Under the pieces are notes generated by a model. The model saw only the letters and a program-made list of their open reading frames with translations, ran no database searches and was not told the DNA's origin. A stretch of DNA of 64,000 bases, from contig PUMM01000024.1 of the NCBI GenBank assembly GCA_003551365.1, forward strand, positions 10,556 through 74,555, written 5' to 3'. A program made the translations under genes and the position numbers. Source of the stretch: Clostridia bacterium (lineage in GTDB: Bacteria; Bacillota; Sulfobacillia; SLMV01). Shown one piece after another: positions 17,143 to 61,501 of the stretch; position 1 is the stretch's first letter; the number at the start of each line of letters is the position of its first letter.

Positions 17143-19919
<2,777 letters not shown>

Positions 19920-20045: not shown

Positions 20046-21095
20046 TTGCGCCACGTTCTGATCAGCTTTCTCTTACTGCTCATCGTCGTCATTATATGCA
20101 TACCCTGGGTCATGATGCGCGGTCTGGATGAAGCGGCGCCTCCCGATCGCCCCCCGGATTCGCCCCCTGAGGTGAAGAGAGATTCCTCCCCGCCCGAGGA
20201 GGGGGAGGCCCCCCTCACCATAGAGGTGGCGCTCTCCGGTTCGGGACGGGTTCAACCGATGGGACTGGAGGAATACCTGGTCGGGGTGGTGGCGGCGGAG
20301 ATGCCGGCCAGCTTCCACCCGGAGGCACTGAAGGCGCAGGCGGTGCTGGCGCGCACTTATGCGGTGTCGCGCCTGCGCGAGCTGGGCGGCAGCGGCACGG
20401 CCGCAGGGGCGGATGCGGATATCTCTGATGACCCGGATTACGATCAGGCCTGGATGAACTCGGAACAGATGAGGGATCGCTGGGGCTGGCTATCCTACTG
20501 GACGCATCGCCGCCGCATTGAGGAGGCAGTGGCGGCCACGGAGGGACTGGTGGTGACGCACGACGGTTCCCTCATTGAGGCGGTATATCATTCCACCTCG
20601 GGCGGAAGAACGGAGGATGCCATCTCGGTGTGGGGAGGTGAACATCCCTACCTGGTGAGTGTGCAATCCCCGTACGAGGAGCACTCTCCCCACAAGCTCA
20701 CTGCCCGCCGGCTCACCTGGGGTGAACTGGCGGGGCTGACCGGGGTGGAGGAGGAGACCCTGCGGGCGCAGGGGGCGGACCCCGACGGTCGGGCGGTGCG
20801 CGTCGCCGAGCGAAGCAAAACTGGCCGGGTGGTGCGGGCCATAATCGGCGGGGAGGAGTTCTGCGCCCGCAGACTGCGCGAGCTGCTGGACCTTCCCTCC
20901 ACCTGGTGGGAGGTCGAGGAGCACGGGGACGGGGTGACATTCTCTGTGCGCGGCTTCGGCCACGGCGTGGGCATGTCGCAGTACGGGGCGGATGGCATGG
21001 CGCAGCGAGGATACTCCCACCGCGAGATAATCACACACTACTATCCGGATACCGAGCTGCACTCCCTGCAGGAGCTGGATGCGGTCGCTGAGTGA
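20046..21095 (+). CDS. spoIID: Stage II sporulation protein D (lytic transglycosylase)
   Basis: SpoIID/LytB domain: AQAVLARTYAV, YHSTSGGRTEDA, GFGHGVGMSQYGA. N-terminal TM segment. Confidence 0.9.
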   Translation: MRHVLISFLLLLIVVIICIPWVMMRGLDEAAPPDRPPDSPPEVKRDSSPPEEGEAPLTIEVALSGSGRVQPMGLEEYLVGVVAAEMPASFHPEALKAQAVLARTYAVSRLRELGGSGTAAGADADISDDPDYDQAWMNSEQMRDRWGWLSYWTHRRRIEEAVAATEGLVVTHDGSLIEAVYHSTSGGRTEDAISVWGGEHPYLVSVQSPYEEHSPHKLTARRLTWGELAGLTGVEEETLRAQGADPDGRAVRVAERSKTGRVVRAIIGGEEFCARRLRELLDLPSTWWEVEEHGDGVTFSVRGFGHGVGMSQYGADGMAQRGYSHREIITHYYPDTELHSLQELDAVAE

Positions 21096-21110: not shown

Positions 21111-22145
21111 TTGTCGACGGCCACTCCGGCAATACTAGGCGAGAAGGGAGTGGAGACCTTGTATCGACGCAGAGTTACACCTGCACAGAAGTTTCAGTTG
21201 ATATGTTGTGCCATTGGACTCACCGTACTGCTGCTGGTCGTCTTAACCTCGCGCAGCGTTCCGCGGGTGCCGGACGGAGCGGATGACGCGGCGTCGGGGC
21301 AGGTGTTCTACGAATGGGCGCTCAGCGCCCCCGGAGGAGAGATCTCGCCGCCCACCGGTGGGGGATCTGCCTTCATCCACGGGGGCAGGGCTCCGGCCGG
21401 AGGGGGCGCGGCTGCCAGTCATCTGGGTGGCCTCATCGCCGCCGGGCTGGGAGATCACCTCTGGCCGCCCGGTGATGGCGTCACTCTGATAGACCACGTT
21501 TCTCCGTCCCCGCCCGCTGAGCCTCCCGCCGCGCCGCAGACCGAGCCGGTCGACTCCGGAGTTAATCGGCCACCCCGGCCAATGCCCCCGCCAGACGAGG
21601 GGCGGGAGGATCATTCCCCGGCGGAGCAAAAGACCCCGGCCGGCGATGAGGCGTCCCCCGGGAAGCAGACGGATGATGCTCAGGACAGAAGCAAGGCGGA
21701 CCCGCCGCCCGCCGAGTACGGGGTTGTGGAGAAAGTCCCGCTGCCGGTGTGCGGGGAGGTGGCAGTACCCTTTGGCTGGACCGAATGCCCCACCCTGGAC
21801 GAGTGGATCTTTCACCCCGGCATCGACATCGAGGCAGAGGAGGGGAGTGTGGTGTGCGCTCCCGTGGCGGGAGAGGTGCTGGAGGTGCGGGACGAGCCAG
21901 ATATGGGTACCTCGGTCACAGTCGCCGCAGGGGGACTTCAGTTCATCCACTCGGCCCTGGCCGTAGCCGCGGTGGCCCCCGGGGGGGCCGTGCAGCGGGG
22001 GGAGACCCTGGGCGAAGTGGGTCCCGCCCCGCCCCGCGAGGTGGCCGTCGGACCCCATCTGCACTGGGAAGTGCGGGATGCCGGGGGCGAGCCAGTGGAG
22101 ATCCGGGTTGAGCCGGAAGGCGACCGGGCGAGGTTGATCCGCTGA
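21111..22145 (+). CDS. Membrane-anchored M23/LytM-domain protein, SpoIIQ-like by position
   Basis: TM helix (ICCAIGLTVLLLVVL), Pro/acid-rich linker, C-terminal LytM domain with HPGID and HLHWEV. Lies between spoIID and spoIIID. Start uncertain (TTG 21111 or TTG 21159). Confidence 0.6.
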   Translation: MSTATPAILGEKGVETLYRRRVTPAQKFQLICCAIGLTVLLLVVLTSRSVPRVPDGADDAASGQVFYEWALSAPGGEISPPTGGGSAFIHGGRAPAGGGAAASHLGGLIAAGLGDHLWPPGDGVTLIDHVSPSPPAEPPAAPQTEPVDSGVNRPPRPMPPPDEGREDHSPAEQKTPAGDEASPGKQTDDAQDRSKADPPPAEYGVVEKVPLPVCGEVAVPFGWTECPTLDEWIFHPGIDIEAEEGSVVCAPVAGEVLEVRDEPDMGTSVTVAAGGLQFIHSALAVAAVAPGGAVQRGETLGEVGPAPPREVAVGPHLHWEVRDAGGEPVEIRVEPEGDRARLIR

Positions 22146-22248: not shown

Positions 22249-22512
22249 GTGAGAGGATACATCTGGCGGCGGGTCCTGGACGTGAGCACCTACATCGCCG
22301 ACACAGGTTGCACGGTGCGGGATGCGGCCCGCAAGTTCGCCGTTAGCAAGAGCACAGTACACAAGGACGTCAGCGAGAGACTCCCCCAGATCGACGCCCG
22401 CCTGGCCGGGCGAGTGCGCCGTATTCTGGATCACAACAAGGCGGAACGGCACATCCGCGGCGGTGAGGCCACCCGCAAAAAATATGCCGAGCGTCATGCA
22501 GGAGTTTCCTGA
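22249..22512 (+). CDS. spoIIID: Sporulation transcriptional regulator SpoIIID
   Basis: FAVSKSTVHKDVSERLPQID...RHIRGGEATRKKY closely matches the B. subtilis SpoIIID HTH region. 87 aa. Confidence 0.95.
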   Translation: MRGYIWRRVLDVSTYIADTGCTVRDAARKFAVSKSTVHKDVSERLPQIDARLAGRVRRILDHNKAERHIRGGEATRKKYAERHAGVS

Positions 22513-22524
22513 ATGACCGAGAAA

Positions 22525-22531
22525 CCGATAT
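22525..22531 (+). promoter_or_regulatory. Sigma-D-type -10 element (CCGATAT) upstream of the rod-gene leader; -35 poor
   Basis: Exact CCGATAT ~40 nt upstream of the riboswitch-like element. No TAAA at the expected spacing. A 7-mer alone can occur by chance. Confidence 0.25.
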
Positions 22532-22571
22532 ACTTAGAGAAGTTCATATGATGCCTGCGGAGTGAGAAACC

Positions 22572-22655
22572 CGACAAGGGCAAACCCATCGCGAGGTGGG
22601 GGCGCAAAGCCGTGATTCCCCCGTGGAATGTCTGGCTGCCGGGACATCACCGTCG
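22572..22655 (+). promoter_or_regulatory. Candidate c-di-GMP-I (GEMM-I) riboswitch aptamer
   Basis: AAGGGCAAACC, then hairpin CCCAUC-GCGA(GNRA)-GGUGGG, then GGCGCAAAGCC, then a second long hairpin (22612-22650). A lone C and GUCG follow, pairing with CGAC (22572-22575). This near-matches the Vc2 aptamer core as I recall it. Confidence 0.68.
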
Positions 22656-22752
22656 ATTGCCCCTCTCCAGCAGCTCCGCGCTGGGTACCCCTTCGGAGAA
22701 AAACTACCCTTGTCGCCCTCGTCCGGATGCATCGACGGGAGGTGAATGCGAC

Positions 22753-24401: not shown

Positions 24402-24437
24402 CCTCCGGGGACGAATAAGTCCCCGGAGGTGTTTTTT
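24402..24437 (+). terminator. Rho-independent terminator after the rod genes, overlapping the fabZ SD
   Basis: 11-bp stem CCTCCGGGGAC/GTCCCCGGAGG, 6-nt loop, then TGTTTTTT. Confidence 0.75.
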
Positions 24438-24896
24438 ATGGCCGACGTGATGATGACCTCGGAACAACTCAAGGAGCACATACCGCATCGCTATCCCTTT
24501 TTGTTCATCGATGCGGTCACGGAAATGGAAGCGGGTGAGTGGGCCGAGGGATACAAGATGGTCACCGCCAACGAGTGGTTTTTCCCCGGGCACTTCCCGG
24601 GAGAGCCCATTTTGCCCGGGGTGATCATGGTCGAGGCCCTGGCCCAGCTGGCTGCGGTGTGCTTTCTGGCCGAGGAGGGGCAGGAGGCGGACCTGGGAGT
24701 CTTCACCGGTCTGGACGGCATCAAGTTCCGCCGGCTGGTGCAGCCGGGTGAGCGCCTGGACCTGCGCATCGAAAAGGAACGGCAGCGCGGGCCCTTCGTA
24801 CGGGTGACGGCCCGGGCATCCGTGGATGATGAGACTGCCGTACAGGGCAGCATGTCGTTCTCGCTGCTCGCAGGAGATGAGAGGGATGATGATTGA
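24438..24896 (+). CDS. fabZ: 3-hydroxyacyl-ACP dehydratase FabZ
   Basis: IPHRYPFLFIDAV and GHFPGEPILPGV motifs. Confidence 0.93.
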   Translation: MADVMMTSEQLKEHIPHRYPFLFIDAVTEMEAGEWAEGYKMVTANEWFFPGHFPGEPILPGVIMVEALAQLAAVCFLAEEGQEADLGVFTGLDGIKFRRLVQPGERLDLRIEKERQRGPFVRVTARASVDDETAVQGSMSFSLLAGDERDDD

Positions 24897-26073
24897 GGCC
24901 GGACTACAGGCGCTGTGCGCGCGCATCCTCACTCCGGAAGGGGAGGTGCGGCGCGCCACGGTACGCTGGGAGGACGAGAACCTGACCGGGGTCCAGAGCG
25001 GCCTGCAGGCGGCACCGGATGTGCGCATCGTTCCCACTGGATACACGCTGCTCCCGGCCCTGGTGGATCTGCACGCCCACGGCGGCGGGGGCGTGGACGC
25101 GGCCGATTTGCTAGAGGCCACCCCGGGGGAGGCTGCCGATCTGTGGTGCGAGCTCAGCGCGCACGCGGCCCGGGGCGGGGCAGCGGCGATGGTGCCGGCG
25201 CTGATGTCGGCCGGGCCCGAGGCCACCGAACTCTTTTTGCACCGCGCGGCGAACCGACCAAAACGTCTCCCGGGCGCCGATCTGCCGGGGGTTCACCTGG
25301 AGGGACCCTATCTGGATGAGGAGTACCGGGGGGCGCACCGGACTGAGCACCTGCGCAGCCCCGACCCGGATGAGGTGCAGCGCTGGCTGAAAGTGGGGGG
25401 CGACGCCCTGTGCATGGTAACGCTGGCTCCCGGGCTGCCCGGGGCGATGGAGGTGGTTGAGCAGCTGTCCGCGCCGGGCCGGATCGTGGCCTGCGGGCAC
25501 ACGGGGGCGGGTCTGTGGGAGATGAACCGCGCCTTCGGCCGGGGGGCGGGGCACGTTGCTCACCTGTTCAACGGGATGCGGCCCATGCACCACCGCCATC
25601 CGGGCCCAATTGCCGCGGCCCTGCTGCGCTCCGGGGTAACCTGCGAGTTGATAGGCGACGGGCTGCACGTGCACCCGGAGATGGTGCGCCTGGCCGCCCG
25701 GATGAAGGGTCGGCGGGAGCTGTGCCTGATCACCGATGCCACTGCTGCCGCCGGCTGCGGGGAGGGGGAATACTCCCTGGGTGGATGCCCGGTGCAGATG
25801 TCCGGAGGTGCTGTGCGCACCCCCGACGGGGCCCTGGCGGGCACCGCGGCGACCCCGATAGACGTTTTACACTGGGCGGTGGATGATCTGGGGTGGACTC
25901 TGGAGCGGGCAGTGGATGCCCTGAGCCGGGTGCCAGGTGGAGTGTTGGGCAGAAATGCCGGACAGATTGCGGCCGGCCGCCGCGCCGACCTGCTGCTGGT
26001 GGATGAGGAGCTGGAGGTGGTCGCCACCGTCGTCGGTGGGCGGGTGGTCAGTGGACACATACCGGAGGAGTGA
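24886..26073 (+). CDS. nagA: N-acetylglucosamine-6-phosphate deacetylase
   Basis: DLHAHGGGG, EGPYL...GAH, GHTGA, HLFNGM motifs. Start chosen among ATG 24877/24886/24889, overlapping the fabZ end. Confidence 0.87.
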   Translation: MMIEAGLQALCARILTPEGEVRRATVRWEDENLTGVQSGLQAAPDVRIVPTGYTLLPALVDLHAHGGGGVDAADLLEATPGEAADLWCELSAHAARGGAAAMVPALMSAGPEATELFLHRAANRPKRLPGADLPGVHLEGPYLDEEYRGAHRTEHLRSPDPDEVQRWLKVGGDALCMVTLAPGLPGAMEVVEQLSAPGRIVACGHTGAGLWEMNRAFGRGAGHVAHLFNGMRPMHHRHPGPIAAALLRSGVTCELIGDGLHVHPEMVRLAARMKGRRELCLITDATAAAGCGEGEYSLGGCPVQMSGGAVRTPDGALAGTAATPIDVLHWAVDDLGWTLERAVDALSRVPGGVLGRNAGQIAAGRRADLLLVDEELEVVATVVGGRVVSGHIPEE

Positions 26074-44514: not shown

Positions 44515-44586
44515 GTCTCACCGGCTGTACATCCCGGTCCGGGCGCCATTAACATTGTAGGGACGGCGGGAGAGGAGGAACGGGCG

Positions 44587-45930
44587 ATGTCGACGGACGA
44601 CGCTGGGGATGCCGAAGCAATCCGGAGACGTAGAGTCCGCGCTCACCTGTTTGCCGCCGCCATTCTGGCGGGGGCAGTTGCCACCGGAATTGTGCTCTGG
44701 CCCACTGCAGTTCCCAATCCGATATCATTGCTATTCTTTTTCGTCATCATTGCGGTGACCGAGGCGCTGCCCATCAGGCTCCCCCGGGCCAGGGGGACCG
44801 TCTCGGTGGGTTTTGCCATGTGCTATTCGGCGGTGATTCTCTTCGGACCCTTCTGGGGTGGGCTGCTCACCGCCATCGGTTCCCTGCGCAAGGCAGAGGT
44901 GACCGGCAGGGTGGAGGTACTGGAGACCCTGTTTAACCGCGGGCAGCTGTTTCTGGCCGGCGTCAGCGGTGGTCTGGTCTTTCACTCCATATCCGGCGGT
45001 TCGCTGGAGGCCGGGCAGGGCGTGCTCATCGGAGCCACCATGGCCGGGGGCATAGCCTATTTCGTGGCCAACGTCACTGCCGTGGTCATATACTTCTCCC
45101 TCAAGATGGGAGCCGATCCCCGCGCTCTGGTGCTCAATGACATTCGCTGGTCCATTCCCAGCTACATGGGGCTGATGCCCATTGCCTATCTCAACGTCGC
45201 GGTATACGGAGCGGTGGGCAAGCTGGGCGTCATATTCTTCCTGCTGCCGCTGCTGGTGGGCCGCTACGCCTTCCAGATGTACAGTCAGCTGCGCGAGGTC
45301 TTCGTCAGCACCATCAGTGCCCTGGCCGCCGCCCTGGAGGCGCGGGATCCGCACACCTCGGGACATGCCGAGCGCGTATCCTACTACGCGGTGCGCATTG
45401 CCAAGGGCATGCAGCTGCCGGATGATCGGGTGGAGCTGCTGCAGTACATTGCCATCCTGCATGACATCGGCAAGCTGGGCATCGAGGATCAGCTGCTGCG
45501 CAAGCCCGGCAAGTTCGATGCTGCGGAGATGAAGATCATGCAGTCGCACTCGCAGATAGGTGCGAACATACTGAGCAAGATCAAGGCCCTGCGCGAGGGA
45601 GCCAGCTGGGTGCTGCATCATCACGAGCGCTACGACGGGGCCGGCTACCCGGACGGTCTGCAGGGGGAGGATATTCCGCTGGAGGCGCGGATTCTGGCCG
45701 TCGCGGATGCCTTTGATGCCATGCTGTCCGAGCGCCCCTACAAGGATCCGATGACCCCCGGGGAAGTGCGGCGGGAGCTGATCCGCTGCCGGGGCACCCA
45801 GTTCGATCCCCAGGTCACCGATGTGCTGGTCGATTTGATGGACAACACCGATCTGGTGCAGCCGCAGATTCATCGGGCCGGGTCGGAGGAGTCGGTGGAG
45901 GAAGAGGCGAGAGGTGGCAGGGCGACATGA
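44587..45930 (+). CDS. Membrane-anchored HD-GYP c-di-GMP phosphodiesterase
   Basis: Multi-TM N-terminal half. HD (ILHDIGK), HHERYDGAGYPDGL, VADAFDAMLSERPYK. Confidence 0.9.
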   Translation: MSTDDAGDAEAIRRRRVRAHLFAAAILAGAVATGIVLWPTAVPNPISLLFFFVIIAVTEALPIRLPRARGTVSVGFAMCYSAVILFGPFWGGLLTAIGSLRKAEVTGRVEVLETLFNRGQLFLAGVSGGLVFHSISGGSLEAGQGVLIGATMAGGIAYFVANVTAVVIYFSLKMGADPRALVLNDIRWSIPSYMGLMPIAYLNVAVYGAVGKLGVIFFLLPLLVGRYAFQMYSQLREVFVSTISALAAALEARDPHTSGHAERVSYYAVRIAKGMQLPDDRVELLQYIAILHDIGKLGIEDQLLRKPGKFDAAEMKIMQSHSQIGANILSKIKALREGASWVLHHHERYDGAGYPDGLQGEDIPLEARILAVADAFDAMLSERPYKDPMTPGEVRRELIRCRGTQFDPQVTDVLVDLMDNTDLVQPQIHRAGSEESVEEEARGGRAT

Positions 45931-54233: not shown

Positions 54234-54271
54234 ACAACAATTGACAGCAGGCCGGGGAGAGGATAGGCAAT

Positions 54272-57200
54272 ATGGCAACTGACGACAGGTGCGAACAAAG
54301 GTTTCTGTTACTGCTGTTTGTGGCTGTACTGGTACTGATGCTTTTCGCCGCCGGCCGGGATAGTGACTTCTGGATGCTGGGAGTCCTGCCGGTGGCCCTC
54401 TCCGGGTACTCCTGCTTTGCTAAGGATATCCTGTCTTTTGTCCGGGATGGTGCGGAAGGTGTAGATGGAGAACGCTCCTCCGCTTCGTCCGGAGAGGGGG
54501 GGCAGGAGGAGGTCGTCGTTCGGTGCACCGCGACCGGAGAAATAACGCATGGAAGGGAAGAGTTTTGCCAGCTCTTTTCTGTGCAGACGGACGAGACCGC
54601 CCCGGACAATCTGTTTCATCACGTGGACGATCGGGGGGAGCTGGCTGACCAGCTGTCCGGCCTGCACCCCGATGATCCCCTGGTTACCCTGCAGTGTGAT
54701 ATCCGTACCTCCGGAGACGAGCAGCTGCGCCAGCGCTGGACGGTGGGAGCCTTTTTCAATGCACGGGGTGAGGTGATGGAGTATCAGGTGACCGCCCGGA
54801 ACGTCGACCGGCGGCAGTGGAGTGCGGCCAGGTTGGGACGACTCATCGAAAACGCTCCCGACATGATTGTCCTATATGATACCAGCTTCCGCCACATATA
54901 CTGCAACCGGGCGGTGGAGCACCACTTTGGGGTTTCCCGCGATTTCTTCCTGGGCCGGACGTTCAGTGATTTGCGACAAGAGCCCCATTATGGGCACTAT
55001 CGAGAAACTGCGCGCACTATGGAGAGGACACTGCAGACATGCCTCCGGGAAGGGCAGCCGCAGGAGCTGCAGGTGGAACTGCCCTTTGCCGAGCGGGGAC
55101 GATATTTCGATACCCGCCTGGTTCCGCAGTTCGACCCCGCCGGCGAAGTGGTGGCCATTCAGGTCATTGCGCGGGATATTACCGAGCAGGTGTGGGCGAA
55201 AGAGGAACTGCGGCAGCGGGCGCGGGAGCACCAGGCGGTGCTGAACGGTACGCAATCGGCCATGTGCCTGGTGCGGGTCATCGATGAGGATACCTTTCGC
55301 TATGTACGGAATAATAAGATGCACGAAGAGGTCACCGGTTTTTCTTCCGCGGAGATCCGGGAAAAAGATTTTGCCGAGGTGGTGGGAGAGGATAATGCTG
55401 CGATAATAGCTCGCCACTACCGGGCATGCGCCCGGCGGAAGGCGGTGGTGACCTATGAGGAGACCCTGAGTCTTCCCACCGGGGAGAAGACCTGGCGCAC
55501 AACCCTCACTCCGCTGATTAACTCCTCTGGCTGCGTCACGCACATAGTGGGTATGGCTCACGACATCACCAGGTTGAAGGAGCAGGAGAACCAGCTCAGG
55601 AGACTGGTGCGGGACCAGAACATAATCCTCAGCAGCGTCGATACCCACATCTGGTATCTGCGCGATCCCCACACATATGGGGGAGCCAATGAGGTACACG
55701 CACAGTTCTGGGGGTTGGATGTGGGAGACCTGGAGGGCAGGCCGCTCTCTGAAACGAGAGAGGAGGAGGATCTCAGAGCCTGTCTTGCGGCGAATAGAGA
55801 GGTTTTCTGCACTGCAAAGACCTACCGCGGACAGGAGTGGGTGACCGACGGTGCCGGAGAGAAGCGGTTCATGGATGTCACGAAGACCCCGCACATAAAT
55901 GAGTGGGGTGAAGTGGAGTACGTCATCTGTTCGGCCAATGATATTACCGAGCAGAGGGAGTTGGAGGAAAACCTGCGTCAGCGGGAACAACAGTTTTTGG
56001 CACTGGCCGAAAACTCGCCCGATCTCATAACCCGGGTGGATCGCAATCTGCGCCGCGTCTATACCAATCCCAGGGTGAAGGAGTATCTGGGCGTGGAGCG
56101 AGATGATGCGGTGGGCAAAAACAATGAGGAACTGGGAATATCGCCTCCCATGTCACAGGAATGGGAGGCGGCCGTCTCCCGGGTGTTCTCCTCGGGAGAA
56201 TCTGTGGAGACGGAGCTGACCTCCGAGCACAACGGCGTCAGTAGGTTCTTCCACACCCGCCTGGCTCCGGAGTTTTCCCCCGACGGGAGGGTGGAGTCGG
56301 TTGTCAGTGCGACCAGAGAGATCACCAGATTGAAGAAAGCGGAACGGCAGCTTCATCACAGCGAGAAACGTCTGCAAAATGTGCTGGCGCTGATTCCGGA
56401 TATGATATCCATTCAGGATCCCGAGATGAACATCGTCTACAGCAACTGGAACGGCTTCGGGGCGGTACCCGAGGAGGACCGGGTGCTCGGCCGAAAGTGC
56501 TACCGGACCTATCGGGACCGGGACAGTATCTGTCCGGACTGCCGCGCCGTGCGCGCACTGCATACCGGCGAGGTCGTGCGGGAAGAGGTCGAGCTGCCGA
56601 CAGGATGGTTTGAGGTGCGGGCCATTCCCGTGCGGGGTGATGATGGCGAAGTAGAACTGCTAATCGAATGGGTCAGAGATATAACTGACCAGAAGGAGCG
56701 GGAGCAGGACCTGCTCTACCGGAAGAATCTCCTGCAGGGCATCCTCGACGGGATCTCCGATGTTGTGGCCATTCAGGATACCGACCACAGAATAGAGCAG
56801 TACAACCGGGCGGGCTATGAACTACTGGGAATGACGCACGAGGAGGTGCAGGGCAGGCGCTGCTACGAACTGCTGGGCCGGGAGAGCGAATGCCCCGAAT
56901 GCGCCACCCGGGAGGCGCTGCGCACCGGTGAGTTTCAGCAGATTGCCAGGTATGTACCGGAGCTGGAACTGTATCTGGACTGGCGCAGCAACCCCGTGTT
57001 TGACGAAAACGGTGAGCTGGTGCGGGTAGTGGAGCAGCTGCGCGACATAACCGAGGAGAAGAAAATGCAGCAGAAGATGCGCTACATGAGTTTTCACGAT
57101 CGGCTGACCGGTCTTTACAATCGGCGCTTTTTGGAGCAAGAGATGGACAGACTGGACAGTGATCGCCAGTTTCCCTTGAGCCTCATTATGGCAGATGTCA

Positions 57201-58105
57201 ATGGGCTCAAGCTGGTCAACGAGACTTACGGCCATGACACCGGCGACCGTATGCTGGCGCGGGTGGCCGGTATACTGCAGGATTCCTGTCGCAGCGATGA
57301 CATCATCGGCCGGTGGGGTGGCGACGAGTTCGTCGTGGTGCTCCCCCGAACCGATGCCACCCAGGCGAAAGGAATCGCTCACAGGATCCGACGGGCCACC
57401 GGAGGCACATACATAGACGAACTTCCCATCTCGGTGGTGGTGGGGGTTGGAGTCAAGGAAGACGCCGATCAGTCCATGATGCAGGTCCTGAGCGATGCCG
57501 AAAATGATATGTACAAGAACAAGCTCACCGCCAGCAGTAGTCAGAAGAGCGTCATCGTGGATGCCTTTTTGCGCATGCTGCGGGAGAACAGCTTTGAGAC
57601 AGAGGAGCACACCAGAAGGATGACTGACCTGGCCACGCGTATCGGGGAGAGAATTGGTCTATCCGAATCGGAGATGCACCGGCTGGTGCTGCTGGTTCGT
57701 CTGCACGACATAGGCAAGACCAGCGTGTCACAGGACATACTCACCAAGGAGGAAAGCCTCACCCCCGAGGAATGGGAGGCGGTCAAGGAGCATCCGGAGG
57801 TCGGCTACCGGATAGCGCGCTCGACCGAGGAGTTCTCGCATGTGGCGGAGGAGATCCTGACACATCACGAGCGCTGGGATGGGACCGGATACCCGCAGGG
57901 TCTGCAGGGAGAGGAGATACCCCTGCTCGCCCGCATCGTGGCAATCGCCGATGCCTACGAGGTCATGATCAACGGTCGACCATACAGTACGACCAAGTCA
58001 CACGAAGAGGTTGTCGCCGAATTGCGGCGGTGTGCCGGCAGTCAGTTCGATCCGCAGCTGATCCCGGAGGCAGTTGAATGCATTGAGGGGTCGGCCGATG
58101 AGTAG
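54272..58105 (+). CDS. Membrane-anchored multi-PAS sensor with GGDEF (diguanylate cyclase) and HD-GYP (phosphodiesterase) domains
   Basis: Two N-terminal TM helices. Many PAS modules ending in DIT(E/D)xK linkers. RSDD I-site plus GGDEF. LHDIGK, HHERWDGTGYPQGL. Confidence 0.95.
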   Translation: MATDDRCEQRFLLLLFVAVLVLMLFAAGRDSDFWMLGVLPVALSGYSCFAKDILSFVRDGAEGVDGERSSASSGEGGQEEVVVRCTATGEITHGREEFCQLFSVQTDETAPDNLFHHVDDRGELADQLSGLHPDDPLVTLQCDIRTSGDEQLRQRWTVGAFFNARGEVMEYQVTARNVDRRQWSAARLGRLIENAPDMIVLYDTSFRHIYCNRAVEHHFGVSRDFFLGRTFSDLRQEPHYGHYRETARTMERTLQTCLREGQPQELQVELPFAERGRYFDTRLVPQFDPAGEVVAIQVIARDITEQVWAKEELRQRAREHQAVLNGTQSAMCLVRVIDEDTFRYVRNNKMHEEVTGFSSAEIREKDFAEVVGEDNAAIIARHYRACARRKAVVTYEETLSLPTGEKTWRTTLTPLINSSGCVTHIVGMAHDITRLKEQENQLRRLVRDQNIILSSVDTHIWYLRDPHTYGGANEVHAQFWGLDVGDLEGRPLSETREEEDLRACLAANREVFCTAKTYRGQEWVTDGAGEKRFMDVTKTPHINEWGEVEYVICSANDITEQRELEENLRQREQQFLALAENSPDLITRVDRNLRRVYTNPRVKEYLGVERDDAVGKNNEELGISPPMSQEWEAAVSRVFSSGESVETELTSEHNGVSRFFHTRLAPEFSPDGRVESVVSATREITRLKKAERQLHHSEKRLQNVLALIPDMISIQDPEMNIVYSNWNGFGAVPEEDRVLGRKCYRTYRDRDSICPDCRAVRALHTGEVVREEVELPTGWFEVRAIPVRGDDGEVELLIEWVRDITDQKEREQDLLYRKNLLQGILDGISDVVAIQDTDHRIEQYNRAGYELLGMTHEEVQGRRCYELLGRESECPECATREALRTGEFQQIARYVPELELYLDWRSNPVFDENGELVRVVEQLRDITEEKKMQQKMRYMSFHDRLTGLYNRRFLEQEMDRLDSDRQFPLSLIMADVNGLKLVNETYGHDTGDRMLARVAGILQDSCRSDDIIGRWGGDEFVVVLPRTDATQAKGIAHRIRRATGGTYIDELPISVVVGVGVKEDADQSMMQVLSDAENDMYKNKLTASSSQKSVIVDAFLRMLRENSFETEEHTRRMTDLATRIGERIGLSESEMHRLVLLVRLHDIGKTSVSQDILTKEESLTPEEWEAVKEHPEVGYRIARSTEEFSHVAEEILTHHERWDGTGYPQGLQGEEIPLLARIVAIADAYEVMINGRPYSTTKSHEEVVAELRRCAGSQFDPQLIPEAVECIEGSADE

Positions 58106-58135
58106 TCATTTCACTGTCGTGGAGGGAACTGTCGT

Positions 58136-61100
58136 ATGACGAACCACAGGAGATATCTGGTGGCCGCCGTGCTGGCAGTTGCATTCATGCTCTCCTTCTT
58201 CACCTTTCCGACTTTTGTCAGCGGCGGGCTGGGTGTATTTTTCATCGTGTATCTGGCCTGGATCGAGGGCCTGCGCGGCGGTATCGCCGGGACGGCTCTG
58301 GGTTCACTCATCATGATAACCAGCTACCTGCTTTCTGCACCGCACACCTTCAGCCGCACCGGCCTGCTGGAGGGGCTTTTTATATACGCTGTGCTCGGTC
58401 CCGGCCTGGGCAAGCTGGTATCGGACCGCAGGTGGGCGCAGGGGCACATGAGCAGAGCGCGGCAGCATCAGGAAATCCTCCTGCACAACATCGACACGCA
58501 CGTGTGGTACCTGCGCGATCCCTGCACCTACGGCGAGGTGAACCGTTCGCATGCCCGTTTCTGGGGTAAGGAACCGGACGAACTGCGGGGTCGCCCCCTC
58601 TCCGACGTGAGAGCCCCGGATGAACTGGAGGCCTGCGTGAGCGGCAATCGCGAAGTCTTCTCCGCGAGGCGTCCCGTGCAGGCCGAGGAATGGATCAGGG
58701 ATGCGGGCGGCGAGGCGCACCTGATGGCGGTGACCAAACACCCCTATATAAACCGGGATGGCGAGGTGGAATATGTCATCTGTTCGGCCAATGACATAAC
58801 CGAGCACTGGAGGGCCCTGCAGGCGCAGCGGGAGAGCGAGCGGCGCTTCCGGGGGTTTGTGGAAAATGCCAATGACATAGTCTTCACCTGTGATGAGCGA
58901 GCTGTGTTTCGCTATGTGTCGCCCAACTGGCAGGATATCCTGGGTCATGATCCGGATGAGGTGCGGGGGAAGCATCCCGGTGACTTCGTGCATCCGGATG
59001 ATGCAGAGAGGCTCTTCAGCGAGTTCCGCGAGTTTCTGCGCGAGGGTCCCTCGAACCAGGAGATTCAGTACCGGGTGCAGCGCAGTGATGGGCAGTGGCG
59101 CTGGCACGCGACCAAACTGGGGATTCTGGAGGACAATGGACGGGGAGTGACGATTCTGGGCATCGCCCGGGACATCACGGACCGCAAGCACGCTGAACAG
59201 AGACTGCGGAAGAGCGAGGCGCAGTACCGGCAGTTGACCGAGACACTGCAGGAGGGCATCTGGGCTTTGGACGCAGAGGGCTACACCACCTTCACCAATG
59301 AGTCCATGGCGAAAATGCTGGGCTACACCCCGGAGGAGATGCAGGGCACGCACCTGTTTGCGCACCTCGATGCCGAGGACGTGGAGAGTGCGCGCCGCAA
59401 TCTCAGCCGCCGGGCCGCCGGGATTCAGGAGCAGCACGAGCAACGATTTCTGCGCAGCGACGGCACCTATCTGCACGCCAGCCTGACCACCACTCCCATA
59501 CTGGACGATGAGGAAAACTACACCGGTGCCCTGGCCGGTGTTCAGGACATCACCGAGCGCAAGCGGGCCGAAGAGAGGCTGCAGGAGAGCGAGCGCAAAT
59601 TCCGCCGTTACATCGAACATGCGCCCCACGGAATATTCGTGGCCGACGGGCAGGGTTATTACCGCGAGGTAAATCCGTCTGCCTGTGACATGAGTGGCTA
59701 CTCAGAGGACGAACTGGTGGGCAGGCACCTTACCGAACTGGTGGCAGAGGGTAGCCGGGAAGACGCGGAAGCGCATTTCGATAGGGTTGTGCGGGAGGGC
59801 AAATCGCGGGGCGAGCTGCACATGACCACGAAGGACGGGCGCATCCGGGTATGGAGTATCAGTGCAGCCAAAATATCGGAGGACTCTTACCTTGGTCTGC
59901 ACCAGGATATAACGGACCGCAAGCGGGCCGAAGAGAGGCTGCAGGTGCAGCTCCGTTTTGAGCGGATGGTGGCCCGCATATCGTCCCACCTGGCCAGCCT
60001 CAGCCTGGACCACATCGATGAGGGGATAGACTATGCCCTGCGGGAGACGGGCCGGTTCTTCTCCGTCGACCGCGCCTACATATTCCAGTTCTCCGGGGAT
60101 GGACAGCATTTCAGCAACACCCACGAATGGTGCTCCGATGGTGTGGACGCGGTCATGCACCACATCCAGGACCAGCCAGTGCACAGCCTTCCCTGGTTCA
60201 TGGAGCGCATACGCAGCGATGATCACGTGCTGGTGCCCGATGTGCGGCAGCTTCCCCCGGAGGCGCACGCCGAGAGGGCAGAATGGGGTTCGCAGGGCAT
60301 TGAGTCTCTGCTGTGCGTGCCCATGACTGAGGATGATCAACTGCTGGGCTTTCTTGGTTTCGATGCTGTCAGGCGACGACGGACCGTTGCCGGCCACCAG
60401 ATAGCGCTGCTGCAGGTGGTGGCTGAGATGATCTCTGCCGCCATTTCCCGGCGGCGGGCCGATGAGGAGATTCGCTACCTCAGCTTTCACGATGGACTCA
60501 CCGGCCTGTACAACCGGCACTACCTGGATGAGGAGCTGCGCCGCCTGGAGGCGGGTCGCCAGCTGCCGGTGGGTGTGATCATGGCCGATCTGAACGGCCT
60601 GAAACTGGTCAACGATGCCTACGGACACGATGTGGGCGATGAGATGCTGAAATCGGCCGCCGCCCTGCTGCACAGCGCCATCCGTAGCGAGGACATCGTG
60701 GGCCGCTGGGGCGGTGACGAGTTCGTCATGATTCTGCCGCAGACCGGACACGATGCCCTGGAGGACATCTGCCGCCGGATTGAGGCCGCCACCGCGGGGA
60801 TCTCGGTGCGCGACGTGCCCATCTCTCTCGCCCTGGGGTGGGCGGTGAAGGAGGAGTCGGACGAGAATCTACTGCAGGTTCTCAATGAGGCGGAGGATGA
60901 CATGTACAGGAACAAACTGGCGGAGAGCAGGAGCCAGAAGAGTGCGGTCATGGATGGTCTTTTGCGGGCTCTGCGGGAAAAGAGCACAGAATCGGAGGAG
61001 CACTCCCGACGAATGCGCCAGGCAGCCCGGCAGATCGGTGCGGGGATGGGGCTGGGTCATCCGGAGCTGCGGCGCCTGGAACTCGTCGTCTGGCTGCACG

Positions 61101-61501
61101 ATATAGGCAAGATCACCATCGCCGAGGATATCCTGCGCAGAGAGGGTTCGGTGTCCGGGGAGGAGGAAGAGGTCCTGCGCAAACACCCGGAGACGGGCTA
61201 CCGCATTGCCCGTTCCACTGAAGAGTTTTCCCACATTGCCGAGGAGATCCTGTCCCATCATGAATGCTGGGACGGAAGCGGCTATCCGCGCGGACTGCAG
61301 GGAGAGGATATTCCCCTCCTCGCCCGCATAATTCACGTGGCGGGTGCCTATGAAAACATGATCAGCGCAAGGGGGAAGGAGCCGCTGTCGCACCGGGAGG
61401 CCATGGCCGAACTGCGCCGCGGAGCGGGGTCGAGATATGATCCCGATGTAGTGCAGGCGGCGGAGACCCACCTGCAGCCGGCGGCCAGCTGCCGGCACTG
61501 A
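58136..61501 (+). CDS. Paralogous membrane-anchored PAS/GAF sensor with GGDEF and a divergent HD-GYP domain
   Basis: Multi-TM N-terminus, 4-5 PAS modules, a GAF-like module, RSED I-site plus GGDEF, LHDIGK, HHECWDGSGYPRGL, VAGAYENM. Confidence 0.95.
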   Translation: MTNHRRYLVAAVLAVAFMLSFFTFPTFVSGGLGVFFIVYLAWIEGLRGGIAGTALGSLIMITSYLLSAPHTFSRTGLLEGLFIYAVLGPGLGKLVSDRRWAQGHMSRARQHQEILLHNIDTHVWYLRDPCTYGEVNRSHARFWGKEPDELRGRPLSDVRAPDELEACVSGNREVFSARRPVQAEEWIRDAGGEAHLMAVTKHPYINRDGEVEYVICSANDITEHWRALQAQRESERRFRGFVENANDIVFTCDERAVFRYVSPNWQDILGHDPDEVRGKHPGDFVHPDDAERLFSEFREFLREGPSNQEIQYRVQRSDGQWRWHATKLGILEDNGRGVTILGIARDITDRKHAEQRLRKSEAQYRQLTETLQEGIWALDAEGYTTFTNESMAKMLGYTPEEMQGTHLFAHLDAEDVESARRNLSRRAAGIQEQHEQRFLRSDGTYLHASLTTTPILDDEENYTGALAGVQDITERKRAEERLQESERKFRRYIEHAPHGIFVADGQGYYREVNPSACDMSGYSEDELVGRHLTELVAEGSREDAEAHFDRVVREGKSRGELHMTTKDGRIRVWSISAAKISEDSYLGLHQDITDRKRAEERLQVQLRFERMVARISSHLASLSLDHIDEGIDYALRETGRFFSVDRAYIFQFSGDGQHFSNTHEWCSDGVDAVMHHIQDQPVHSLPWFMERIRSDDHVLVPDVRQLPPEAHAERAEWGSQGIESLLCVPMTEDDQLLGFLGFDAVRRRRTVAGHQIALLQVVAEMISAAISRRRADEEIRYLSFHDGLTGLYNRHYLDEELRRLEAGRQLPVGVIMADLNGLKLVNDAYGHDVGDEMLKSAAALLHSAIRSEDIVGRWGGDEFVMILPQTGHDALEDICRRIEAATAGISVRDVPISLALGWAVKEESDENLLQVLNEAEDDMYRNKLAESRSQKSAVMDGLLRALREKSTESEEHSRRMRQAARQIGAGMGLGHPELRRLELVVWLHDIGKITIAEDILRREGSVSGEEEEVLRKHPETGYRIARSTEEFSHIAEEILSHHECWDGSGYPRGLQGEDIPLLARIIHVAGAYENMISARGKEPLSHREAMAELRRGAGSRYDPDVVQAAETHLQPAASCRH
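59558..59945 (+). repeat. Exact 28-nt direct repeat, two copies 360 nt apart, inside the second sensor gene
   Basis: CGCAAGCGGGCCGAAGAGAGGCTGCAGG at 59558-59585 and 59918-59945. Both encode the RKRAEERLQ inter-PAS linker. Confidence 0.9.

Follow-up and report, generated by a model that had tools for sequence, protein, structure and literature searches.

The leader of a two-gene flagellar distal-rod operon in a deep, uncultured, spore-forming lineage of Bacillota is best explained as a whole, with a probability of roughly 0.85, as carrying a class-I c-di-GMP riboswitch (GEMM-I) together with a proposed OFF mechanism, in which ligand binding would lower translation of the rod proteins. The aptamer lies on the sense strand of the 240-nt leader, 110 nt upstream of the FlgF/FlgG-like genes, and, as judged from its sequence and conservation, very probably acts as a functional c-di-GMP sensor for these genes. 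As a riboswitch it is ordinary, one more member of a well-known class, and knowledge of the class itself is unchanged by it. What is mildly unusual is the distal-rod target, the deep lineage, and the existence of orthologs that pass the cut-off of a variant class without carrying the base that defines it.

The aptamer and its gene context

The window, meaning the whole 64-kb stretch of DNA analyzed here, was scanned on both strands with cmscan against 4227 Rfam families, and RF01051 (c-di-GMP-I) was the sole family to reach gathering level. The match at 22569-22643 (+) scores 51.6 bits (gathering score 35, E 3.4e-7), covering the model at full length, from position 1 to 87 of 87. The GEMM-I resemblance is far beyond chance, and the alignment assigns 22570-22643 to the aptamer of a class-I c-di-GMP riboswitch (Table 1). 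A GEMM-I aptamer in a flagellar rod leader is what the original prediction had proposed, with an RF01051 search named as the check; that search gave a significant match above gathering, and the proposal is further borne out by seven syntenic loci, canonical ligand contacts and covariation in 111 related aptamers, all described below. The strings quoted in its favor are present as given, namely ACAAGGGCAAACC-CAUC-GCGA-GGUG-GGGGCGCAAAGCC at 22574-22611, GUGAUUCCC at 22612-20, GGGACAUCAC at 22641-50, CGAC at 22572-75, GUCG at 22652-55, CCGATAT at 22525-31, the Shine-Dalgarno (SD) motif GGGAGG, and a hairpin of 22718-23 with 22734-39.

Table 1. Positions of the aptamer, the putative expression platform, neighboring genes and ortholog features discussed in the text (window coordinates unless a contig is named)
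Feature	Position	Strand	Basis or remark
Aptamer including P1 extension	22562-22650	+	predicted extended P1
P1 extension, 5' strand GUGA	22562-22565	+	pairs with UCAC 22647-50 across a GAAA/ACA internal loop; aptamer-enforced fold
P1 5' strand CCCG	22570-22573	+	pairs with CGGG 22640-43; RF03167/RF01051 alignments of orthologs
Junction ACAAGG	22574-22579	+	alignment to RF01051 consensus AAaGGCAAA
Equivalent of Vc2 G20	G22579	+	model alignment
First arm	22580-22605	+	GC/GC helix 22580-81 with 22604-05, plus 6-bp hairpin
First-arm hairpin CCCAUC-GCGA-GGUGGG	22585-22600	+	GNRA (GYRA-type) tetraloop
Equivalent of Vc2 A47	A22606	+	RF01051/RF03167 alignments
Second arm (P2) AGCC-G-UGAUUCC, loop CCCGU, GGAA-UG-UCUGGCU	22608-22637	+	cmscan alignment
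Equivalent of Vc2 C92	C22639	+	
P1 3' strand CGGG	22640-22643	+	pairs with CCCG 22570-73
P1 extension, 3' strand UCAC	22647-22650	+	also in alternative hairpin GUGAU 22612-16 with AUCAC 22646-50
5' flank of switching strand	22549-22566	+	UGAUGC 22549-54, CGGA 22558-61, UGAG 22563-66
Anti-aptamer segment CCCUUGUCG	22707-22715	+	perfect 9-nt complement of CGACAAGGG 22572-80
Anti-SD strand UCGCCCUCGUC	22713-22723	+	pairs with GACGGG-A-GGUGA 22734-45
Shine-Dalgarno GGGAGGUG	22737-22744	+	8 nt before GTG 22753
CCGATAT heptamer	22525-22531	+	unsupported as promoter
atpC	19485-19919		Pfam
spoIID	20046-21095		Pfam
M23 peptidase	21111-22145		Pfam
spoIIID	22249-22512		Pfam
Leader, 240 nt			between spoIIID and rod genes
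Regulated gene 1, FlgF-like (FlhO type), 254 aa	22753-23517	+	GTG start
Regulated gene 2, FlgG-like (FlhP type), 285 aa	23514-24371	+	Pfam, NCBIfam
fabZ	24429-24896		3' of rod genes
Possible P1-terminator arrangement, L034	2822-2837 and 2903-2924		GC-UUUUUU; U run plus upstream hairpin
Possible P1-terminator arrangement, L037	2808-2823 and 2891-2911		GCA-UUUUU; U run plus upstream hairpin

The window aptamer shares with the RF01051 consensus and with Vc2 a two-arm architecture closed by P1, the junction AAGGGCAAAC and CGCAAAGCC strands, a GNRA-capped first hairpin, and the residues equivalent to G20, A47 and C92. In Vc2, G20 recognizes one of the two ligand guanines, and C92 forms a Watson-Crick pair with the second (PMC6140456). 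The two RNAs differ in that Vc2 has an 11-nt tetraloop receptor in P2, whereas the window aptamer combines a GCGA loop of the GYRA type with a P2 whose receptor positions are deleted in the RF01051 alignment, and has a P1 that is long and interrupted. In the Vc2 crystal structures, A47 is a ligand contact as well. In this class, the GNRA loop docks into the second arm, GAAA with the 11-nt receptor and GYRA with an alternative. On this docking criterion, applied to the sequence only, the GCGA tetraloop on the first arm and the second arm lacking the 11-nt receptor presumably represent the known receptor-less GYRA sub-type, which was reportedly described by Weinberg 2007 and Sudarsan 2008. The alternative GUGAU/AUCAC pairing, which involves the 3' strand of the P1 extension, has a probability of 0.38-0.54 in the unconstrained ensemble and is not conserved.

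Both genes downstream of the leader encode flagellar rod/hook domains, and motility is among the gene contexts that gave the riboswitch class its name. The first contains the Pfam domains Flg_bb_rod, LlgE_F_G_D1 and Flg_bbr_C and scores 144.6 bits against the NCBIfam FlgEFG subfamily, with flgF as its best equivalog; the second, which overlaps the first by 4 nt, falls in the FlgE/F/G subfamily (NCBIfam), with FlgG as its best equivalog. The earlier description of the targets as rod genes is correct as far as it goes, but they are specifically a FlgF/FlgG-like distal-rod pair of the FlhO/FlhP type and not rod genes generally. The distal rod of B. subtilis consists of FlhO (FlgF) and FlhP (FlgG), which are assembled after FliE, FlgB and FlgC (PMC12153297). 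In the window, spoIIID is followed directly by the rod genes, and there is no terminator between spoIIID and the leader. The B. subtilis chromosome has mbl between spoIIID and flhO. On the far side of the rod genes, a NagA-like amidohydrolase ORF at 24826-26073 overlaps the end of fabZ by 71 nt (24826-24896), and the true start of this ORF is probably further downstream.

The three HD-GYP-type (HD_5) and two GGDEF domains that the original prediction had counted in the window are indeed there. They belong to a MASE9-HD_5 protein encoded at 44515-45927 and to two adjacent giant multi-PAS GGDEF-HD_5 proteins, one of them with a GAF domain, encoded at 54245-58102 and 58106-61498; the organism, therefore, makes and degrades c-di-GMP. 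This dense c-di-GMP turnover locus is situated about 30 kb from the riboswitch. The associated claim that the aptamer would link c-di-GMP to flagellar assembly gains support from the RF01051 match, the synteny and the canonical contacts. The MetK protein of the organism is at most 66-67% identical to those of its named relatives (Bacillota MAGs and Dethiobacter). The relatives that were found originate from soda-lake sediment metagenomes and one NCBI MAG.

Conservation and ligand class

A protein search yielded four closer clusters of rod proteins, which are 71, 57, 53 and 50% identical to those of the window. The contigs concerned (L031-L037) have the same gene order as the window, and the aptamer is found in the spoIIID-rod leader of all seven syntenic loci (7/7), representing all four related uncultured Bacillota lineages for which sequences were obtained. 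All seven are above gathering; the L033 aptamer scores 46.7 bits against RF01051. P1 and P2 of the model are paired in 86.7% of ortholog cells, compared to 31-56% in slid controls, with P1 paired in 83%, including a C-G to U-A change, and P2 in 87.9%. The original prediction had named conservation of its helices in relatives as a check, and conservation holds for P1 and P2 of the model, but not for its own choice of helices: P1 formed by CGAC and GUCG and a second hairpin of 22612-20 with 22641-50 are paired in 53.8% of ortholog cells, against 35-54% in slid controls. These segments are complementary in the window, yet pair no better than controls across orthologs, and have been rejected as aptamer helices.

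The aptamer sub-type also occurs beyond the syntenic loci. A metagenome search with its conserved 5' half recovered that half from more than 120 contigs, and the sub-type is therefore common. A covariance model was built from the orthologs, and 111 related aptamers were aligned with it. In this alignment, which is fitted to the model and in which the selection pattern fixed the 5' half, 95% of the cells are paired (32-45% in slid controls) and 18 of 26 pairs show double changes, values that were reached by 0/500 shuffles. The double changes affect all five pairs of helix 1, which is the extended P1 (5/5), four pairs in helices 3 and 4, both of which are paired in 100% of the 111 sequences, and eight pairs in helices 5 and 6, which are 93-96% paired. 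The G20 equivalent is G in 111/111 and the C92 equivalent is C in 104/111; the A47 equivalent is A in 111/111, a residue that the search pattern had fixed in the metagenome set. Association of the aptamer with the rod genes has its limits. A rod-protein scan of species-representative genomes found only homologues that are 25-37% identical, and none of the 20 distant rod-homologue loci has an Rfam match or fits the core regex. Because these loci lack an Rfam match, they were not usable as orthologous leaders, and the association is not a general property of flgF/G-like genes.

These data bear on whether the match could be a chance resemblance or the functionless, decayed relic of an aptamer. 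Folding of the entire leader shows no unusual stability, its minimum free energy (MFE) being no lower than that of shuffled sequences (z = +0.62), as might be expected of a relic. Set against this are the E value of 3.4e-7, which was obtained for the whole window against all families, the compensatory changes in P1 and P2, and the pattern of divergence: the aptamer columns are on average 86% identical across leaders, while the flanks have diverged, to the point that the sequence between aptamer and SD is largely unalignable, and the proteins are 50-71% identical. Chance or decay is, therefore, scarcely credible as an explanation.

The residues at the ligand-contact positions are canonical. The triad equivalent to G20/A47/C92 consists of G22579, A22606 and C22639, and this combination of G, A and C argues for c-di-GMP as the ligand, rather than cGAMP or whatever is bound by the "GGC" variant. 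GEMM-Ib riboswitches of Geobacter, which respond to 3',3'-cGAMP, have a homologous fold but carry A at position 20. This is the general property of cGAMP-sensing relatives (PMC6140456), and the window has G22579 at the equivalent position. An assignment to c-di-GMP-I-GGC (RF03167) requires more discussion, as this family is the best-scoring one for six of the seven ortholog loci, with 61-64 bits and a cut-off of 59. Its gathering score is exceeded at L031 2831-2905, L034 2832-2908, L035 534-610, L036 2832-2908 and L037 2818-2896. The name "GGC" appears to refer to positions 20, 47 and 92, to go by the RF03167 consensus, which reads ACGC-G-AAgCc and has a conserved G at the A47 position. ACGC-A-AAGCC is found in the window and in all of its orthologs, with a blank in the match line at the variant column. 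The window itself does not reach the RF03167 gathering score of 59 and is above that of RF01051, which is the only family listed, with no clan competitor. RF03167 and the window agree in overall fold, in lacking a tetraloop receptor and in the AA bulge of a modelled P1, and it is most likely these shared secondary features, particularly the missing receptor and the modelled P1, that the high RF03167 scores reflect. With A instead of G at the defining position in the window and in every ortholog, and with G instead of A at position 20, it is very improbable that the aptamer belongs to either variant class and binds another ligand. Its sequence features place it among the ordinary c-di-GMP-I aptamers, in the sub-type with a GYRA tetraloop and no receptor. 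The orthologs, which pass the GGC-variant cut-off and carry the canonical A, would be mislabeled by automatic Rfam annotation.

The putative expression platform

How ligand binding might be conveyed to the rod genes was approached by modelling, which somewhat favors a translational OFF switch that operates by SD occlusion, through competition among three strands. In the absence of ligand, the 5' strand at 22549-22580, comprising the flank, the P1 5' half and the junction, would pair with 22707-22734. Since the latter segment holds the anti-SD strand, the SD would be accessible and rod proteins would be made. Once c-di-GMP is bound, P1, the junction and the GC helix would be locked into the aptamer, and the long-range helix would lose its 9-bp core. 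The freed anti-SD strand (22713-23) could then close an 11-bp hairpin over the SD, and rod translation would fall. This proposal fits in with c-di-GMP being a repressor of motility in general, and with the precedent of the OFF switch Cd1.

Several predicted properties of the leader are in line with such a competition. In a transcript starting at about 22540, the long-range helix dominates the unconstrained ensemble with a probability of 0.94-0.99. It consists of four segments (22549-54/22729-34, 22558-61/22722-25, 22563-66/22718-21 and 22572-80/22707-15) and ties up the aptamer 5' strand as well as the anti-SD strand. The predicted ligand-free partners of the 5' flank are GCAUCG (22729-34), UCCG (22722-25) and CUCG (22718-21); GAUG of this flank is invariant in the orthologs, and the window duplex has a z-score of -4.8. 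The core of the helix involves CGACAAGGG, which runs from the 3' half of the P1 5' strand through the junction to the first G of the GC helix, and its pairing with 22707-15 has a probability of 0.99 in the free ensemble from 22540. L031 has exactly the same anti-aptamer segment, and the remaining orthologs each carry a matching version of their own. Duplexes of the 5' segment with the 45 nt before the SD reach -28 to -36 kcal/mol in 5/5 distinct orthologs, the sequences of which differ (z = -3.9 to -5.6, with 0-1/500 dinucleotide shuffles as good), and cognate pairs average -32.2 kcal/mol versus -24.6 kcal/mol for cross-lineage pairs, which makes them 7.6 kcal/mol better. The long-range pairing appears to be significant and to co-vary in all five orthologs, with statistics that are weak because there are only five distinct orthologous leaders.

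The opposing state is represented by the SD hairpin. An SD-occluding hairpin had been part of the original prediction, which called it weak; the hairpin is real, but in the present models it has 11 bp (22713-23 with 22734-45, A22740 bulged), is formed with a probability of 0.83-0.91 in the ensemble from 22560, and is present in the aptamer-enforced MFE structure. Its target sequence GGAGGTG is invariant in all orthologs, within the context GAC(G/A)GGAGGTG, and the start codons align. Opening the SD is predicted to cost 1.3-4.7 kcal/mol when the long-range helix is imposed and 4.5-15.7 kcal/mol when the aptamer is. The aptamer-enforced state adds 2.6-14.4 kcal/mol to the opening cost, with the same direction in 5/5 orthologs, an effect that is partly built in, as the enforced ON constraint covers 45 nt upstream and so removes the local partners of the SD. 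The smallest difference, 2.6 kcal/mol, is that of L034. In the window, the predicted stability of the helix state exceeds that of the aptamer state by about 10 kcal/mol when no ligand is present. This is a gap that nanomolar-to-picomolar ligand binding, with affinities like those of Vc2, could presumably pay for. In L033, the aptamer state is predicted to be the more stable one even without ligand. Plain MFE folds are inconsistent in that unconstrained folds vary from one ortholog to another and the long-range helix is missing from some of them, and constrained ensembles and duplex tests were used for this reason.

The anti-aptamer and anti-SD sequences form an imperfect tandem repeat at 22707-22724 (CCCUUGUCG followed by CCCUCGUCC). 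The aptamer strand CGACAAGGGC, in turn, resembles the SD region CGACGGGAGG, and each repeat unit can, therefore, pair with either partner. The SD-like 3' strand of P1a, GAGGUGGG, was considered as a decoy for the anti-SD strand. This idea was dropped because the hairpin is common to more than 120 unrelated GEMM-I aptamers and should be stable independently of the ligand.

The SD occlusion model depends on the position of the transcription start, which would have to be upstream of about 22549. With a 5' end downstream of this position, only the 9-bp core of the long-range helix is left, and in a transcript beginning at 22560 the difference in SD opening nearly vanishes (8.7 versus 10.2 kcal/mol). 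A sigma-70 promoter scan found none. The original prediction had placed a sigma-D-type -10 element at the CCGATAT heptamer, a reading that has been discarded. The SigD consensus of B. subtilis has TAAA at -35, about 15 nt upstream of GCCGATAT. There is no TAAA at -35 within 24 nt upstream of CCGATAT, and 0/16 copies of the heptamer in the window have one; nor is CCGATAT conserved in the ortholog leaders. The 16 copies compare to 6.85 expected, a number that 0/100 shuffles reach, and most of them, at sites such as 31, 9059, 22525, 29412 and 44719, are inside ORFs.

The aptamer might also be real and control transcription, either with P1 as the stem of an intrinsic terminator or through Rho-dependent termination. 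Support for this comes from sister lineages. In L034, L035 and L037, GC-UUUUUU or GCA-UUUUU comes after the 3' strand of the extended P1, whose 5' strand can be sequestered by an upstream hairpin (AUCGAG-AAUA-CUCGAU, P 0.69-0.91). SD accessibility changes little in L034 and L035; furthermore, Cd1, the best-studied flagellar example, works by termination. Yet there is no U run after P1 or elsewhere in the leaders of the window, L031 and L033, and a loop of the size of the aptamer is atypical for a terminator. The simple scan for intrinsic terminators on the + strand found none after the aptamer in the window, in agreement with the original prediction of no clear terminator downstream, and was negative even for L034 and L037. 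Transcriptional control of the window operon is, on balance, unlikely.

Even less probable is an ON switch, in which binding of c-di-GMP would raise expression of the rod genes. Class-I aptamers may couple to either logic (PMC9262584), the platform is only modelled here, and the ground state of L033 is the predicted aptamer state. An ON switch is at odds, however, with the higher predicted cost of opening the SD in the aptamer-enforced state of 5/5 orthologs, and with c-di-GMP being generally a repressor of motility and Cd1 an OFF switch. A translational OFF switch by SD occlusion, thus, remains the somewhat favored proposal, and it provides a testable three-strand model for a translational class-I switch.

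Comparison with known systems

Among the closest known systems is Cd1 (Cdi-1-3), a class-I riboswitch that turns off the flgB flagellar operon of C. difficile (PMC6366702). Like the window RNA, it is of class I and occupies the leader of flagellar structural genes in a spore-forming member of the Bacillota. It is an OFF switch, as predicted for the window, so that high c-di-GMP lowers flagellar gene expression. The two differ in what is controlled and how. Cd1 acts by transcription termination on a 23-kb early operon that includes sigD, whereas the window has a two-gene distal-rod operon, no terminator was found, and SD occlusion is predicted. The window and its orthologs would provide a clean and conserved case, outside of C. 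difficile, of flagellar structure being controlled by c-di-GMP at the RNA level, with the unusual feature that the control point consists of two distal rod proteins encoded apart from the main flagellar operon.

The choice of target allows for some speculation. It is conceivable, and is offered here tentatively, that c-di-GMP acts on the separately encoded distal-rod pair instead of a master or early operon, possibly with P1 terminators in sister lineages. If so, a riboswitch-gated checkpoint would exist in mid-assembly of the flagellum of these deep, uncultured spore-formers, and high c-di-GMP could hold up assembly once the basal body is complete, as suggested by the distal-rod target. In L034, L035 and L037, the same aptamer would have been re-wired, such that the ligand-stabilized P1 and the U run together make a terminator.

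On some of the metagenome contigs, GEMM-I aptamers of this sub-type occur several times within a few kb. L043 has aptamers at 370-464, 484-565, 1181-1262 and 2253-2334, including a directly tandem pair, L112 has four copies and L147 has three.
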